A stretch of 64,000 nucleotides of DNA, from NCBI GenBank assembly GCA_037445005.1, contig JBBILH010000003.1, positions 26,151 through 90,150 of the forward strand. The letters are read 5' to 3'. This DNA is from Nitrospira sp. Its GTDB lineage: Bacteria > Nitrospirota > Nitrospiria > Nitrospirales > Nitrospiraceae. This document shows, one piece after another, positions 40,324 to 44,504 of the stretch. Each line of letters starts with the position of its first letter. Position 1 is the first letter of the stretch. Both the position numbers and the translations under genes were made by a program. Below the pieces are notes generated by a model. The model made no database searches and was not told the DNA's origin. It was given only the letters and a program-made list of their open reading frames with translations.

Positions 40324-41475
40324 TCATGTCTTAAAGTGCTTGCTCAGCGTGAGGGCCTGCCGTTGATACGACGACCCGATGCCGACGCCGTATAGTTGCC
40401 GGGGCATCTCAAGCATCCTGTCGTATACAACCTTGAAGAAGGTTTGTCCATCGTGAATCAGAAAGGGCACGTCATGGGGCCTGACCTCCAGGACGACTTG
40501 GGTGCCGGGGATTTCGCCTTCGGCGCCGTACCCGAACCCGGGATCGAAGAATCCGGCGTAGTGGGTCCGCAATTCGCCGCAGGCTGCTTCGTAGGCGACC
40601 ATTTCTGCCGCGAATCCGGGGGGAACGCGAATTCGTTCCTTTGAGGCCAGGATGTAAAATTCTTCGGGCTCCAGCAGAAGACTTTCCTGGCGATGCCGGT
40701 AGAGAGGCTCCCAGAAGTCCGCCGCCGCATAGTGCCCGACTTTCGAGAGGTCGATCACGTGGCTGTTCTTCTTCGCCCGGTAGCCGATCACATGCGAGTC
40801 GGCTCGTTCTTCGCCCTTTAAGTCGATCCGCAGAAACAGGCCCCGATCCGTCCGAAAGTCCTTCGCCTTGAGGGGTTTTGGTTTCGGGGAATTGTGGTAG
40901 AGCAACGGCTCGCGGCGATGGAGATTTTGGAGCGCGGCATCACTGGTTGTGGCTTCCCCCCGCACGAACCTGATTTGATTGAGCGACTGCCCCGTCCTGA
41001 CTTTTATCGCAAACGAGCGCGGCACGACTTCCAGGAAGAGCGGCCCGCGATAACCCCGGCGTATTTCGTCGAAGCCGGTGTTCAGATCCGTGACGACTCG
41101 GGTGAAGACGTCCAGTCGCCCGGTGGTGCTTTTGGGATTGGCGCGGGCCCGGACAGTGGCCGGAAGCTTGAGAGACTCCAGCAACGGCACCAGATAGACA
41201 TGGCCCTTCTCAAGAATCGCGCCTCCGGTCAGGTCCATCTCGTACATGACCAGATCGGATTGATAGAAGTCCATTATGTCGAGACGGCTGGATATCGGGG
41301 TCAGTTCGGGCAGAAAGCTGCTGATCAATCGGTAGGCTTTCTTCCCAAGGCGCAGGTCCAGGCTGGCCGGTTGAAGCTGTCGGTCTTCGATCGGGGCCGT
41401 CGCCGTCACGGCTCCGTGGGCGATCAAACGGGCGATGTGCTGGTACGGCAAGATGCCTTGGGCGGGCGCAGTCAT
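40324..41475 (-). CDS. dcd: 2'-deoxycytidine 5'-triphosphate deaminase (long, two-domain type)
   Basis: LQPASLDLRLG, ANPKSTTGRLDVFTR, RTHYAGFFDPGFG, YQRQALTLSKHF. Confidence 0.88.
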   Translation of the reverse strand: MTAPAQGILPYQHIARLIAHGAVTATAPIEDRQLQPASLDLRLGKKAYRLISSFLPELTPISSRLDIMDFYQSDLVMYEMDLTGGAILEKGHVYLVPLLESLKLPATVRARANPKSTTGRLDVFTRVVTDLNTGFDEIRRGYRGPLFLEVVPRSFAIKVRTGQSLNQIRFVRGEATTSDAALQNLHRREPLLYHNSPKPKPLKAKDFRTDRGLFLRIDLKGEERADSHVIGYRAKKNSHVIDLSKVGHYAAADFWEPLYRHRQESLLLEPEEFYILASKERIRVPPGFAAEMVAYEAACGELRTHYAGFFDPGFGYGAEGEIPGTQVVLEVRPHDVPFLIHDGQTFFKVVYDRMLEMPRQLYGVGIGSSYQRQALTLSKHFKT

Positions 41476-41478
41476 GAG

Positions 41479-42669
41479 TTACTCGTCCGTATCGCCGCCG
41501 CAGCTATTGCCCCAGAATGAAAAGCCGTCCCGGTCTGGATAGGCGTCGCTCTGGCCGACGTAGCTTTCAACAGCCTGGCCATAGGCGGCATGGACTCCGA
41601 CCATGGGCAGTTCTCTGCGATTGCCGCCTTTCGGCTGGGGGTAGTGGAAAGTCTTGTTTTCGTAATTCTTCAAGACCGCGCCGTCTCCGTCGATATGGAC
41701 CAAATAGTCGTCCGGCAGCAGTGGAATCTTGCCGCCGCCGCCCGGGGCGTCGATCACGAAATGTGGGACGGCCATTCCGCTGGTATGTCCTTGAAGGGAT
41801 TTCACGATCTGCAGGCCGGTCTCAACCGTGGTCCGAAAATGGTTGGTACCCTTGGTCAAGTCGGCCTGGTAGAGGTAGTAAGGCTTCACGCGGGCCAGGA
41901 GCAGTTGGTGCACCAAGCGCTTCATGATCTCCGGATCGTCATTGACGCCCTTGAGCAGGACCGTTTGAGCGCCGAGGGGGACGCCGGCGTCTGCGAGCAT
42001 GCCGCAGGCCGCTTTGACGGCCGGGGTGAGTTCGTCCGGATGGTTGAAGTGCAGATTCATGTAGACGGGATGGTACTTCTTTACGATGTCGCAAAGCTTT
42101 GGTGTGACGCGCTCCGGCAGTGTGCCGGGCACGCGCGATCCGAGACGGATCAGTTCGAGGTGCGGAATCGTCCGTAAGGCCTTGAGGATTCGTTCGAGCA
42201 GGTGATCGGGTAACAGCAACGGATCGCCTCCGGACAGAATCACGTCCCGCACTTCGGTGTGCTCCCGCAGATAGGCGATCGCCCGATCCAACTCTCCCTG
42301 CTTCAGAAATCCCGGCTTGCCCACCAGCCGTTTTCGGGTACAGAATCGGCAATAGATCGGACATTGGTTGGTGACCATCAGCAGGACACGGTCCGGGTAC
42401 CGATGCACCAGATGCGGCACCGGGCTCATCAAATCTTCTTCAAGCGGATCGTTTTCCGCGTCGATGTCGTCCAACTCGGCTTTGTCCGGAACGACCTGCT
42501 TCCAGATTGCGTCGCCCCGCTCCTTGATGGTTCCCAGCACCGTGGGCGTGATCCGCATGGGGTAGGGGCCGACGATCGCCTCGACTTCCTTCTGGTCCAG
42601 TCCGAATCGCTCGGCGAGATCCTTCGGCTTGACGATGCTGTCGGCAAGAATGCGTCTCCATGCTTCCAT
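41479..42669 (-). CDS. kamA: KamA family radical SAM lysine 2,3-aminomutase
   Basis: HRYPDRVL, CPIYCRFC, LSGGDPL, HFNHPDE, YYLYQAD, DAPGGGGK (PLP lysine). Confidence 0.9.
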   Translation of the reverse strand: MEAWRRILADSIVKPKDLAERFGLDQKEVEAIVGPYPMRITPTVLGTIKERGDAIWKQVVPDKAELDDIDAENDPLEEDLMSPVPHLVHRYPDRVLLMVTNQCPIYCRFCTRKRLVGKPGFLKQGELDRAIAYLREHTEVRDVILSGGDPLLLPDHLLERILKALRTIPHLELIRLGSRVPGTLPERVTPKLCDIVKKYHPVYMNLHFNHPDELTPAVKAACGMLADAGVPLGAQTVLLKGVNDDPEIMKRLVHQLLLARVKPYYLYQADLTKGTNHFRTTVETGLQIVKSLQGHTSGMAVPHFVIDAPGGGGKIPLLPDDYLVHIDGDGAVLKNYENKTFHYPQPKGGNRRELPMVGVHAAYGQAVESYVGQSDAYPDRDGFSFWGNSCGGDTDE

Positions 42670-42684
42670 CGCGGCGCGTCCTCC

Positions 42685-42930
42685 TCAAGGATGGGGCTTG
42701 GCGTACGTCTGCTCGAGGTGCTCGATGATTTCGTCCGTGTCCGTCAAGACCTTCTCGCCGTCCTTCAGTACCGGGACATAGTATTGCCCCGACACCGCAA
42801 AGACCTGGCTGCGAAGCGGTCGAAAATCCGGAACGACGATGCCCTCGTACGACAGGCTCAAGTCCGCGAGTTTTCGCCGGACGACCTCGCACTCGGGACA
42901 CCAGCCGACGTGATACAGCGTAAGCGCCAT
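42685..42930 (-). CDS. Glutaredoxin/GST-N-like protein
   Basis: WCPEC dithiol, VPVLKDG. Confidence 0.85.
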   Translation of the reverse strand: MALTLYHVGWCPECEVVRRKLADLSLSYEGIVVPDFRPLRSQVFAVSGQYYVPVLKDGEKVLTDTDEIIEHLEQTYAKPHP

Positions 42931-42932
42931 GA

Positions 42933-43004
42933 TTTTTAGTTCTTAATCGTGAGTTTTCAATTTAGAAACGAACAACTCAACACTTACAACTCAGCACTCA
43001 AAAC
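42933..43004. repeat. Heptamer-periodic array overlapping the ligase C-terminus
   Basis: AACTCAA CACTTAC AACTCAG CACTCAA with a complementary T/G-rich arm on the left. Confidence 0.5.
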
Positions 43005-44504
43005 TTGGGCCGCCGTTTCACGCGGCGCGGTCGCGCACGGAACCATGACGGCGTCTTTCATCCCGTGGATCACTTTCTTGTCCGCCGGACAGATCGTCGC
43101 CAGGATACCGGCCAGCTCGGCGCGCTCGCCGGTGACGAAGTAATACGGCGACAGCCGGGCTCTCCCCGACATTTCACGAATGTCGTCGGTGATCGGATCG
43201 AAGTATTCGACCTGATACTGGCGGCCTTTGTGAAACTCCTGCAGAACGTATGGTGTCCCGGGAAACGACGACAAGGCCTGCTCGATCGCGGCGGCCCATT
43301 CGCTCTGCGGCAGATCGTGTCCGACCGACACCCCGCGACTTCCCCAGGCAAGTTCCGAGAATCCCGACGGCTTGATGACGAAGTGCCGTTCCTTTTGCGT
43401 TGCCGCCGACAGGTCCCGCCACTGCATGACCGCTCGGCCTCCGATCGATAATCCCGGTATCGTCGCGGTCGGAGGAACGGGCGCCGGATCCATGATCCAC
43501 GTGCGGGGCATGAGAGTGCTCAAGTGAAGATGCAGGTCTTCTCCCAGTTCTTTGCGCCAATAGGGCTGAAGAATCGGATGGTGCAAGAGGGCGAAGGCCG
43601 ATTTCTCCTCAAGCGCAGGTTTGTAGGGAGGCGTGACGATGACCGAGGCTTTCTTGGCCGCATACTGGATGAGCTCGGCCTTTGGGATATTCGGCAGGTC
43701 GAACAATTCGTAGAACCGGTAGAGCAAGCCGACCGGAATGTCGCCGTCGCTTCGTTGTATACGAAGACCTTCTTCGGTGAAGCGAAGCTGCCGCGGCTCG
43801 ACGCAATGGGTTTCGAGTCCCCCCGTCGAGAGCTGCGCGGCCAGCCAAACCATTTCCGGCCGGTAATCCTTCGCTTCCTCGGACACCACGATCGCCACAC
43901 AGCCCGGCTGCGATCCCCGGTGGTGCCGCAGCATCGCCCCAAATTCATTGACCATGCCGTCGGGGCCCCCGACGAGTTCCTGAGGCGTGAGCCGTGAAGC
44001 GTGAAGCGATGACGACCCTCGTCGGCGGTCGAGGTCGCTGTAGATTCGGCTCATGGCGGCTGTGAGGCCGATACCGCCCGGGACCGAGTCCAGCTCCGTG
44101 ATCACCATGCCGTCGGACGTGGGGATGACATCCGGTCTGATGACGGCCGGGAGTTGGTCGCGAAATCGTCTCATCCGGCTATACGTGACGAGGCTCTCCG
44201 GTTTGCCTTGATCCAGATAGCCGGCAACCCATCCGGGTTGAATACCGCGGACGCTTTCCTGGTAGAGCTTGTTCAGGCTTCTATAAAAAGAAAGGAGTTG
44301 CGCTCCGAGTTGTCGGAAAAACCGGAGTTGTTCGGGAGTCAATGTGAAGGGCTGGACTCCGATCCGCCACGAGTTCGGGGAAAAAGCGTCGGACTGGTCG
44401 CGGGGCGGCGTCGATGCGGAGGCGTCAATGGGTGACAGAAGCCCGGACTCGATCAAGGCCTCGCGGATGACGGAACGGCGGTGGAGGAGATCTGCGGTAG
44501 TCAA
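42984..44504 (-). CDS. Circularly permuted ATP-grasp / glutathionylspermidine-synthase-like ligase
   Basis: IRPDVI...TELDSVPGG, EEKSAFALL, VIKPSG...WGSRGV, YVLQEF; TTG start. Confidence 0.7.
   Translation of the reverse strand: MTTADLLHRRSVIREALIESGLLSPIDASASTPPRDQSDAFSPNSWRIGVQPFTLTPEQLRFFRQLGAQLLSFYRSLNKLYQESVRGIQPGWVAGYLDQGKPESLVTYSRMRRFRDQLPAVIRPDVIPTSDGMVITELDSVPGGIGLTAAMSRIYSDLDRRRGSSSLHASRLTPQELVGGPDGMVNEFGAMLRHHRGSQPGCVAIVVSEEAKDYRPEMVWLAAQLSTGGLETHCVEPRQLRFTEEGLRIQRSDGDIPVGLLYRFYELFDLPNIPKAELIQYAAKKASVIVTPPYKPALEEKSAFALLHHPILQPYWRKELGEDLHLHLSTLMPRTWIMDPAPVPPTATIPGLSIGGRAVMQWRDLSAATQKERHFVIKPSGFSELAWGSRGVSVGHDLPQSEWAAAIEQALSSFPGTPYVLQEFHKGRQYQVEYFDPITDDIREMSGRARLSPYYFVTGERAELAGILATICPADKKVIHGMKDAVMVPCATAPRETAAQVLSAEL

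Follow-up and report, generated by a model that had tools for sequence, protein, structure and literature searches.

A conserved ATP-grasp ligase and lysine 2,3-aminomutase module in Nitrospira and its putative beta-lysine product

A locus of Nitrospira sp. in which a ligase gene lies in an apparent operon with genes for a glutaredoxin-like protein, a lysine 2,3-aminomutase (KamA) and a dCTP deaminase raises the question of which of these genes belong together functionally, and to what the beta-lysine expected from KamA might be joined. No published description of the ligase module was found in the literature.

Gene order and transcription of the locus

The window analyzed was a stretch of 64,000 nucleotides (GenBank assembly GCA_037445005.1, contig JBBILH010000003.1). 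The four genes outlined in a preliminary description of this DNA were found again, all on its minus strand, and encode the ligase (42984-44504; 506 aa, TTG start), the glutaredoxin-like protein with a CPEC motif (42685-42930; 81 aa), KamA (41479-42669; 396 aa) and the two-domain dCTP deaminase (dcd, 40324-41475; 383 aa). The intergenic distances of 53, 15, and 3 nt, which that description had read as an operon, were re-derived from the open reading frames and support the operon structure. RNA-seq contigs of N. moscoviensis confirmed that the operon genes are transcribed and spanned the grx-kamA and kamA-dcd junctions, i.e., two of the three operon junctions. A total of 80 related loci were fetched, and the four-gene order was kept in essentially all Nitrospirales loci that reached far enough; gene order in the Nitrospirales is far from chance.

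Several neighboring genes were also evaluated. A membrane protein of no family (39784..40200, minus strand; 138 aa) is conserved downstream in Nitrospirales only, and synteny of a TIGR04283 and TIGR04282 glycosyltransferase-like pair plus a TmpR-like SDR (37193..39665, minus strand) is likewise confined to the Nitrospirales. A gene for a protein with CxxCxxCC and DUF2156 (LPG_synthase_C-like) regions (45732..47267, plus strand; PF09924 91 bits, PF03692 32 bits) lies divergently upstream of the ligase gene in most Nitrospirales loci and is missing from other lineages; whether it is part of the module is uncertain. The GGDEF diguanylate cyclase gene (44580..45602, minus strand), located between the ligase and DUF2156 genes in some Nitrospira, is not counted as a module member; it was present at about 10 of the 80 loci. 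The window also encodes a BolA and monothiol glutaredoxin pair.

Predicted functions of the encoded proteins

KamA, which is encoded by a single copy in the genome, matched TIGR00238 (289.5 bits, cut-off 199.2) as well as the Radical_SAM and LAM_C models, and could be aligned to the lysine 2,3-aminomutase of Clostridium subterminale (PDB 2A5H) with an E-value of 6e-106. In this alignment CPIYCRFC corresponds to C125, C129, and C132 of the radical SAM cluster (CxxxCxxC), the first R of CTRKR to the carboxylate-binding R134, the K of IDAPGGGGK to the PLP-binding K337, and YQAD and IDAP to D293 and D330, respectively. Asp293 and Asp330 of lysine 2,3-aminomutase bind the epsilon-ammonium group of lysine, and other residues take their place in glutamate 2,3-aminomutase; the earlier assignment of KamA to the lysine type, based on both side-chain-binding aspartates, was thus borne out. 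By this alignment, KamA holds every determinant of a lysine 2,3-aminomutase. The best NCBIfam match was the AblA model TIGR03820 (420.7 bits, under the equivalog cut-off of 525.4). Assignment as EpmB was rejected (TIGR03821, 233 bits, cut-off 369.3; EpmB lies on a distant tree branch), as was assignment as glutamate 2,3-aminomutase (TIGR04368, 392 bits, cut-off 650; both Asp are retained and not Lys/Asn). Ligase-linked KamA proteins form a distinct clade in the tree, with the KamA of the window inside it. In agreement with the preliminary description, no epmA, ablB, or lysine-fermentation genes were detected among the neighbors using Pfam and NCBIfam models, nor was an ablB-like GNAT gene, and EpmA was not found in a search of the whole genome (99.95% complete).

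The glutaredoxin-like protein scored 56.6 bits against GST_N_3 (Pfam gathering score 22) and 26.3 bits against Glutaredoxin (22.9), and its best PDB matches were the glutathione-binding N-terminal domains of GST and DHAR proteins; it is assigned to the thioredoxin fold of the glutaredoxin / GST N-terminal type. The CxxC (CPEC) and VSGQYYVPVL (cis-Pro) motifs are kept across the Nitrospirota and Nitrospinota copies. The protein did not match the NCBIfam equivalog models for YruB and mycoredoxin. The 383-aa protein is assigned as a two-domain dCTP deaminase by model matches (NF005734, 506 bits, cut-off 283; PF06559 and PF22569, i.e., DCD_N and DCD_C) and shares 55% identity with the stand-alone alphaproteobacterial enzyme of Agrobacterium (PDB 2R9Q, E-value 2e-102).

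The ligase itself gave no sequence match in Pfam, NCBIfam, or PDB. Its N-terminus is conserved among homologs, and it is predicted to be soluble. The AF2 model of the protein (pLDDT 93, pTM 0.92) retrieved 48 PDB matches at E ≤ 0.001 using Foldseek, all of the branch that unites glutathione synthetase (GSS) and glutathionylspermidine synthetase (GspS), with 46 GSS/GspS-type ligases besides 3n6x and 3k1t. The top matches were 8fbz, 5oes, 3kal, 1m0w, and 2hgs (E-values 1e-15 to 1e-13, TM 0.6-0.67), i.e., eukaryote-type GSS and homoglutathione synthetase, followed by weaker matches such as 3n6x, 7uk8, and 2io8. The ligase is therefore predicted by its modeled fold to be an ATP-grasp enzyme of the GSS/GspS branch; its earlier placement there is supported by this predicted fold and not by sequence. 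Among 29 relatives there was one match to CP_ATPgrasp_2 (E-value 0.009) and one to GSP_synth (E-value 0.036), a profile search of PDB with the ligase family gave no match, and the hhalign alignment to human GSS was non-significant (E-value 0.24). The family comprises 1078 clusters at 50% identity. The ATP-grasp-like motifs TELDSVPGG, IKPSGFS, and LQEF are invariant in the family, and invariant residues include D125, D139, E217, K378, Q422, R450, and H480. By motif comparison and the non-significant hhalign alignment, E137-x-D139, K378, and Q422-E resemble E144-x-N146, K364, and M398-E of GSS.

Among known systems, eukaryote-type GSS and homoglutathione synthetase (2HGS, 8FBZ, 5OES, 1M0W, 3KAL) resemble the ligase in full-length fold, and their Mg/ATP-type motifs appear to run in the same order. 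Homoglutathione synthetase adds a beta-amino acid, beta-alanine, to gamma-Glu-Cys. However, identity is only 10-13% with no Pfam or profile match, the ligase-bearing genomes tested have no gamma-Glu-Cys ligase, and, to our knowledge, GSS is never linked to a lysine aminomutase, unlike the ligase described here. GspS, its homologs YgiC and YjfC, and 3N6X, an ATP-grasp protein with circular permutation, share the superfamily by fold (E-values 1e-12 to 1e-7), but the structural match to GspS is weaker than that to GSS, and the ligase has no amidase domain and does not match the GspS sequence models. The EpmA/EpmB system is similar in that a KamA-family aminomutase feeds beta-lysine to an ATP-dependent ligase, as would be the case here, but EpmA is a class II LysRS paralog that forms an adenylate, whereas the present ligase has an ATP-grasp fold. 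The AblA/AblB pathway to the osmolyte N-epsilon-acetyl-beta-lysine has in common an AblA-like KamA, but the KamA of the window scores under the equivalog cut-off, its partner is a ligase with no AblB adjacent, and the module is present whatever the salinity of the habitat.

Conservation and co-occurrence of the module

Beyond the Nitrospirales only the ligase, the glutaredoxin-like protein and KamA constitute a conserved module. The order ligase-(grx)-kamA was found throughout the Nitrospirales, in other Nitrospirota classes (loci L064, L075, and L079) and in the Nitrospinaceae (L078), and the opposite order, kamA followed by the ligase gene, in another lineage (L118). The ligase-KamA linkage, on the conservation of which the preliminary description had made its reading depend, is hence conserved across lineages. 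Some Nitrospirota families have the module without the glutaredoxin-like gene, and this gene does not adjoin the others in Verrucomicrobiota or Poribacteria, two phyla in which the ligase and KamA genes themselves lie far apart with unrelated neighbors. Outside the Nitrospirota the neighbors of the ligase gene are unrelated housekeeping genes.

In the Nitrospirota sample, KamA was present in 72 of 73 genomes with the ligase and in 5 of 78 without it (Fisher 1e-35, kinship ignored); the sole ligase genome without KamA is 77% complete. A high-scoring KamA was detected in all 43 ligase-bearing Verrucomicrobiota genomes and in 25 of the 108 others, the genes being unlinked and the counts again ignoring kinship. 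Nearly all of the ligase genomes fall in one third of this sample; in that third, 39 genomes had both genes, 10 neither, 2 KamA only, and none the ligase only. All six ligase-bearing Poribacteria genomes encode KamA. The module is universal in freshwater, soil, marine, and hot-spring lineages alike, a distribution that would suit translation or another core function no less than a metabolite.

Possible products of the module

Alongside the gene linkage, co-occurrence, lysine-type active site and ligase fold observed, we tentatively favor, with a probability of about 0.42, that the ligase, the glutaredoxin-like protein and KamA are a functional unit in which the ligase joins beta-lysine to a partner, most likely a small thiol or peptide. 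Since the KamA-ligase pair recurs in four phyla, a beta-lysine conjugate is probably made. KamA would produce beta-lysine from L-lysine through the radical SAM / PLP chemistry usual for this enzyme, and the GSS-fold ligase would use ATP to activate a carboxylate to an acyl phosphate and then build an amide in which beta-lysine is one of the partners, in parallel to homoglutathione synthetase. We infer beta-lysine to be a substrate of the ligase, and the absence of EpmA, which leaves no EpmA to use the beta-lysine, counts in favor; the identity of the second substrate is speculative. The product would most likely be small and soluble, a thiol or peptide that contains cysteine being the first candidate, and the CPxC GST-N-like protein may serve as its thiol-disulfide partner in Nitrospirota and Nitrospinota. 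The thiol idea has some support from the homoglutathione synthetase-like fold, the GST-N-like redox protein and the absence of the tested glutathione and bacillithiol genes in Nitrospira. Neither of the two bacterial GshA types nor BshC was found in any of ten ligase-bearing genomes tested, GshB was missing in eight of the ten, including all Nitrospirota, and none of GshA, GshB, GCS2, and BshC was found in the Nitrospira genomes tested. Counting against the thiol idea, no source of gamma-Glu-Cys or other acceptor was identified in the genomes examined, and other phyla have the module without the redox gene.

That all four genes form one pathway, leading for example to a beta-lysyl nucleotide or nucleoside, would agree with the 3-nt gap, the RNA contigs across the kamA-dcd junction and the adjacency of both genes throughout the Nitrospirales. 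It is nevertheless most improbable, and the four-gene unit of the preliminary description was not supported: outside the Nitrospirales, dcd was found next to kamA only at two related Nitrospirota loci (L070 and L075), it is not part of the module at L064, L078, and L079 or in any lineage with unlinked genes, and its product shares 55% identity with a stand-alone enzyme. Moreover, tblastn detected neither a second dcd nor a dut or thyA gene in the genome, which leaves dcd as apparently the only gene of the dUTPase fold, and dcd followed by a dihydrofolate-reductase-like SDR gene fits thymidylate housekeeping. The dCTP deaminase is probably a co-transcribed housekeeping passenger, and we propose that dcd, like the genes that follow it downstream, is a housekeeping neighbor fixed in the Nitrospirales. 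The linkage of kamA and the ligase gene could also be non-functional, with the beta-lysine used as osmolyte, in catabolism, or otherwise and the ligase joining unrelated substrates. KamA without the ligase is indeed common (at least 25 Verrucomicrobiota and 5 Nitrospirota genomes), and the wide separation of both genes in Verrucomicrobiota and Poribacteria points the same way, but the ligase essentially never occurs without KamA (1/73, 0/43, and 0/6 genomes), the adjacency exists in two gene orders, and neither an AblB-like acetyltransferase gene nor fermentation genes adjoin the module, which makes this explanation unlikely. Modification of a membrane or envelope component, such as a lipid head group bearing beta-lysine or a cell-wall precursor, is suggested by lipid-related neighbors in three lineages, namely the DUF2156 / lysyl-PG-synthase-like gene and the small membrane protein near the module in Nitrospirales, pssA immediately upstream of the KamA gene in two genomes of Verrucomicrobiota, and, in L118, a DAGK_cat gene close to kamA-ligase, and by a Mur ligase gene divergent to the ligase gene in L094 and L095. 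None of these neighbors is conserved across lineages, however, and the predicted solubility and small-peptide-ligase fold of the ligase also make an envelope role very unlikely.

The small-molecule conjugate favored here has to be weighed as well against the doubtful, but consequential, proposal that the ligase is a non-homologous replacement of EpmA that places KamA-made beta-lysine on the conserved loop lysine of EF-P or on another translation protein. The ATP-grasp enzymes RimK and LysX modify proteins, but the characterized enzymes of the GSS/GspS fold known to us all act on small molecules. The ligase is encoded by one copy, universal in its clades whatever the habitat and located among housekeeping genes such as ruvA, rpmB, prfB, and rsgA, and the EF-P of Nitrospira has a Lys-tipped KPGKGG loop and not one of the unmodified PGKGP type. 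In the ten ligase-bearing genomes tested (Nitrospirota, Nitrospinota, and Poribacteria) KamA was always present and EpmA never detected above the cut-off. The ligase occurred in 43 and EpmA in 54 of the 151 Verrucomicrobiota genomes, and both together in none (Fisher 1e-10); in this round-robin sample, however, the ligase genomes fall nearly all at every third position, EpmA was confined to the remaining two thirds, and because the split follows clades it may reflect few evolutionary events, perhaps only one or two that are independent. EpmAB in Verrucomicrobiota was gained by horizontal transfer (PMC11388002). Against a role in EF-P modification, efp adjoins the ligase or KamA gene in none of about 120 loci, KamA is of the LAM/AblA kind and distant from EpmB, and the glutaredoxin-like partner would be left without explanation. 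The type of EF-P modification is unknown for about half of bacteria (PMC11388002). An ATP-grasp analog of EpmA, unlikely as we judge it, would act in Nitrospirota, Nitrospinota, Poribacteria, Verrucomicrobiia, and relatives, and a modification system would then be assigned to a share of this roughly one half of bacteria.

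The operon and its conservation

The operon consists of four minus-strand ORFs: the ligase (506 aa, 42984-44504), a glutaredoxin-like (Grx-like) CPEC protein (81 aa, 42685-42930) with matches to GST_N_3 and Glutaredoxin, the lysine 2,3-aminomutase-type protein KamA (396 aa, 41479-42669), which passes the KamA family model, and a two-domain dCTP deaminase encoded by dcd (383 aa, 40324-41475; NF005734, 506 bits). Their coordinates and the intergenic gaps of 53, 15 and 3 nt agree with the preliminary description, which had proposed a four-gene beta-lysine amide operon. Each gene is present in one copy in the window's genome (3.5 Mb, 99.95% complete), where the window occupies positions 26151-90150 of contig C3; by its close homologs the window belongs to Nitrospira. 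Neither Rfam elements, riboswitches included, nor an internal terminator were found at 39-48 kb of the window. RNA contigs from Nitrospira moscoviensis cross the grx-kamA and kamA-dcd junctions, the latter indicating that dcd is co-transcribed. A secondary-metabolite cluster was rejected, as NRPS/export genes are absent and the genes of the module form a single-copy core set.

Several points argue that dcd is a housekeeping passenger of thymidylate metabolism and not a pathway member: it drops out of the module beyond the Nitrospirales, its product shares 55% identity with 2R9Q, a stand-alone protein from Agrobacterium, the conserved block continues with a dihydrofolate-reductase-like SDR, and it was the sole dCTP deaminase/dUTPase-fold gene found in the genome, itself matching weakly, by tblastn using E. 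coli Dcd, Dut and ThyA sequences as queries. The same genome-wide search detected neither dut nor a canonical dcd or thyA, and thymidylate synthesis presumably proceeds via the two-domain enzyme and a ThyX-type enzyme.

In the Nitrospirales, loci that reached far enough carry a divergent DUF2156 gene followed by ligase, grx, kamA, dcd, a gene for a 138-aa membrane protein, TIGR04283, TIGR04282 and the SDR gene. Outside the Nitrospirales just ligase-grx-kamA remains, in other Nitrospirota (loci L064 and L079) and in Nitrospinaceae (L078); locus L075 has the arrangement ligase-kamA-dcd, and in some Nitrospirota families kamA directly follows the ligase gene without an intervening grx. The order is inverted in one metagenomic lineage (L118), where kamA (4781-5984) lies directly 5' of the ligase gene and is broken across two frames near 5400 by either a frameshift or an error of assembly. 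In Poribacteria and Verrucomicrobiota the two genes are unlinked and their neighbours unrelated; a redoxin gene adjoining the ligase gene in one verrucomicrobial genome was not kept in other Verrucomicrobiota, and pssA, 5' of kamA in one such genome, was seen again in one other genome only.

The divergent gene (45732-47267, plus strand) encodes a CxxCxxCC (YkgJ/FliB-type) domain fused to a DUF2156/lysyl-PG-synthase C-terminal-like domain. This 15-cysteine protein, kept 5' of the ligase gene across the Nitrospirales, may be a module accessory or unrelated. On the other side, the TIGR04283 and TIGR04282 pair and the TmpR-like SDR (37193-39665, minus strand) keep their synteny with the module throughout the Nitrospirales; both TIGR families are named as arsenosugar-biosynthesis glycosyltransferases, and no radical SAM ArsS-type gene was found nearby. 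In a single case (L120:4734-7398, one metagenomic lineage) the ligase gene lies about 150 nt 3' of prfB (RF2) on the same strand, a slot occupied by lysS in many bacteria.

Predicted activities and co-occurrence of KamA and the ligase

KamA was aligned to the lysine 2,3-aminomutase of Clostridium subterminale (PDB 2A5H; E 6e-106). Three cluster cysteines, Arg134, the PLP lysine 337, and Asp293 and Asp330 are kept, the last two being the side-chain aspartates that the preliminary description had correctly recognized; on these residues, the substrate would most likely be lysine and not glutamate. KamA scored below all function-specific equivalog cut-offs (AblA, 420.7 vs. 525.4; glutamate aminomutase, 392 vs. 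650; EpmB, 233 vs. 369), and glutamate or arginine aminomutase specificity was rejected on the NCBIfam scores and the 2A5H alignment. In the phylogenetic tree the ligase-linked KamAs and the unlinked copies from Poribacteria form one clade (support 100/99), whose sister comprises the clostridial enzyme and KamAs of ligase-free genomes; E. coli EpmB is remote, on a very long branch. The C-terminal tail of the window's KamA carries a cysteine (SCGGDTDE).

No sequence match to the ligase was found in Pfam, NCBIfam or PDB, nor did a profile of 29 family sequences match PDB. An AF2 model built from 22 close homologs was unusable (pLDDT 51), whereas one built from 71 diverse family members reached pLDDT 93 and pTM 0.92. 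Foldseek searches of PDB with this ligase model gave 48 matches (E <= 0.001), all to one ATP-grasp branch: the best were glutathione synthetase of the eukaryote type and homoglutathione synthetase from soybean (E 1e-15 to 1e-13, TM 0.6-0.67), after which came 3N6X (a circularly permuted ATP-grasp protein), YgiC and YjfC of E. coli, and glutathionylspermidine synthetase. Sequence identity to these fold matches is 10-13%, and the kinship escapes every sequence model. The residues invariant across the family include E137-x-D139, K378 and Q422-E, and appear similar to the Mg/ATP motifs in glutathione synthetase.

The family comprises 1078 clusters at 50% identity (E <= 0.001), with at least 587 matches in one-genome-per-species contigs. 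Longer members gave no informative domain fusions, since their N-terminal extensions are all low-complexity. At locus L119 a homolog (47% identity) shares its contig with a small acid-soluble spore protein gene, and the family therefore extends to spore-forming Firmicutes-like organisms.

Co-occurrence was counted without regard to phylogeny. Among 151 Nitrospirota genomes the ligase was present in 73 and KamA in 77; KamA occurred in 72 of the 73 ligase genomes, the sole exception being 77% complete, and in just 5 ligase-free genomes. All 43 ligase genomes among 151 Verrucomicrobiota had a high-scoring KamA (two as contig-edge fragments), as did 25 of the 108 ligase-free ones, and KamA was found in 6/6 ligase genomes of Poribacteria. 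Within the ligase-rich third of the Verrucomicrobiota sample, which contains nearly all its ligase genomes, 39 genomes had both genes, 10 neither, two KamA only and none the ligase only. The ligase implies KamA and KamA does not imply the ligase, an asymmetry to be expected of a ligase that consumes beta-lysine and a KamA that serves other uses too. That the two genes are linked without function is quite improbable. The functional unit is the ligase with KamA, joined in Nitrospirota and Nitrospinota by the Grx-like protein, and its most likely product is an amide conjugate of beta-lysine; we put the probability that the ligase uses beta-lysine at all at roughly 0.65.

A small-molecule or a protein target

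Ten ligase-bearing genomes, including the complete genome of N. moscoviensis, were surveyed for genes of glutathione and bacillithiol synthesis and for EpmA. GCS2-type GshA, proteobacterial GshA and BshC were found in none of the ten and GshB in none of the eight non-Poribacteria, whereas control genomes responded as expected. The best alignments of the Grx-like protein are to the N-terminal, glutathione-binding domains of GSTs and dehydroascorbate reductase, and take in the cis-Pro motif and a Thr-Asp-Thr segment at the position binding the gamma-glutamyl group. All linked copies keep CxxC and VSGQYYVPVL. In some Nitrospirales (loci L017, L019-L021, L024-L026, L028 and L030) the protein has an acidic C-terminal tail of 30-40 aa, at whose end stands one of the conserved Cys motifs HPSCRIN, FPSCSL and FPTCTL.

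At 33691-34323 (plus strand) the window also encodes a BolA-like protein (99 aa) and, after it, a monothiol glutaredoxin (107 aa), the latter with CGFT in place of the usual CGFS and with YGDTDIL at the usual GG-x-D site. Glutathione is the normal cluster ligand of such pairs, and this pair is present although the genome lacks the tested glutathione genes. We tentatively propose a small-molecule product, the leading candidate being a homoglutathione-like thiol or peptide.

Alternatively, the ligase could replace EpmA and beta-lysylate EF-P. EpmA was found above cut-off in none of the ten surveyed genomes, where only LysRS, AspRS and AsnRS responded, and tblastn found none beside the ligase or KamA genes in about 120 loci. 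It is present in 54 of the 151 Verrucomicrobiota genomes and in none of the 43 with the ligase, so that no genome (0/151) holds both (Fisher 1e-10); the 133 KamA-positive genomes divide into 43 with the ligase, 50 with EpmA and 40 with neither. The EF-P loop of Nitrospira is the lysine-tipped KPGKGG, the unmodified type being PGKGP. Brewer and Wagner (PMC11388002) report the modification type of about half of all bacterial EF-Ps as unknown, and a horizontal transfer of EpmAB into Verrucomicrobiota. It is this exclusion, the loop and the published survey that make the replacement of EpmA possible. However, the exclusion tracks sampling groups and may therefore represent one or two clade-level events. 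Moreover, tblastn did not find efp beside the ligase or KamA genes in any of these roughly 120 loci, and KamA is unlike EpmB. To our knowledge, all characterized enzymes of the ligase's fold act on small molecules. EF-P or another protein is accordingly an unlikely target.

Two class II LysRS genes, both full-length and about 80% identical, are present in the window's genome (C125:3443-4990 and C2:60592-62100). A concealed EpmA among them was rejected, as each encodes a full-length LysRS, the contig of one measures 7 kb and the complete genome of N. moscoviensis carries just one copy; they probably reflect strain heterogeneity or contamination and not a paralog.

Implications for beta-lysine and thiol metabolism

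The literature on aminomutases (Nitrospira, ATP-grasp, glutathionylspermidine) and on EF-P with ATP-grasp yielded no account of the module. Nitrospira and Nitrospina, the main nitrite oxidizers, lack the tested glutathione and bacillithiol genes and retain glutaredoxins; a new low-molecular-weight thiol would close this thiol gap. If the target were EF-P, the module would supply a missing EF-P modification system. Few fates of beta-lysine are known in bacteria, namely EF-P modification, osmolyte, fermentation and some antibiotics. Conjugation of beta-lysine by the ligase family would, if true, be a fifth, and the family behind it is large, reaches beyond the four phyla to a spore-former-like context and is covered by no model of Pfam or NCBIfam.
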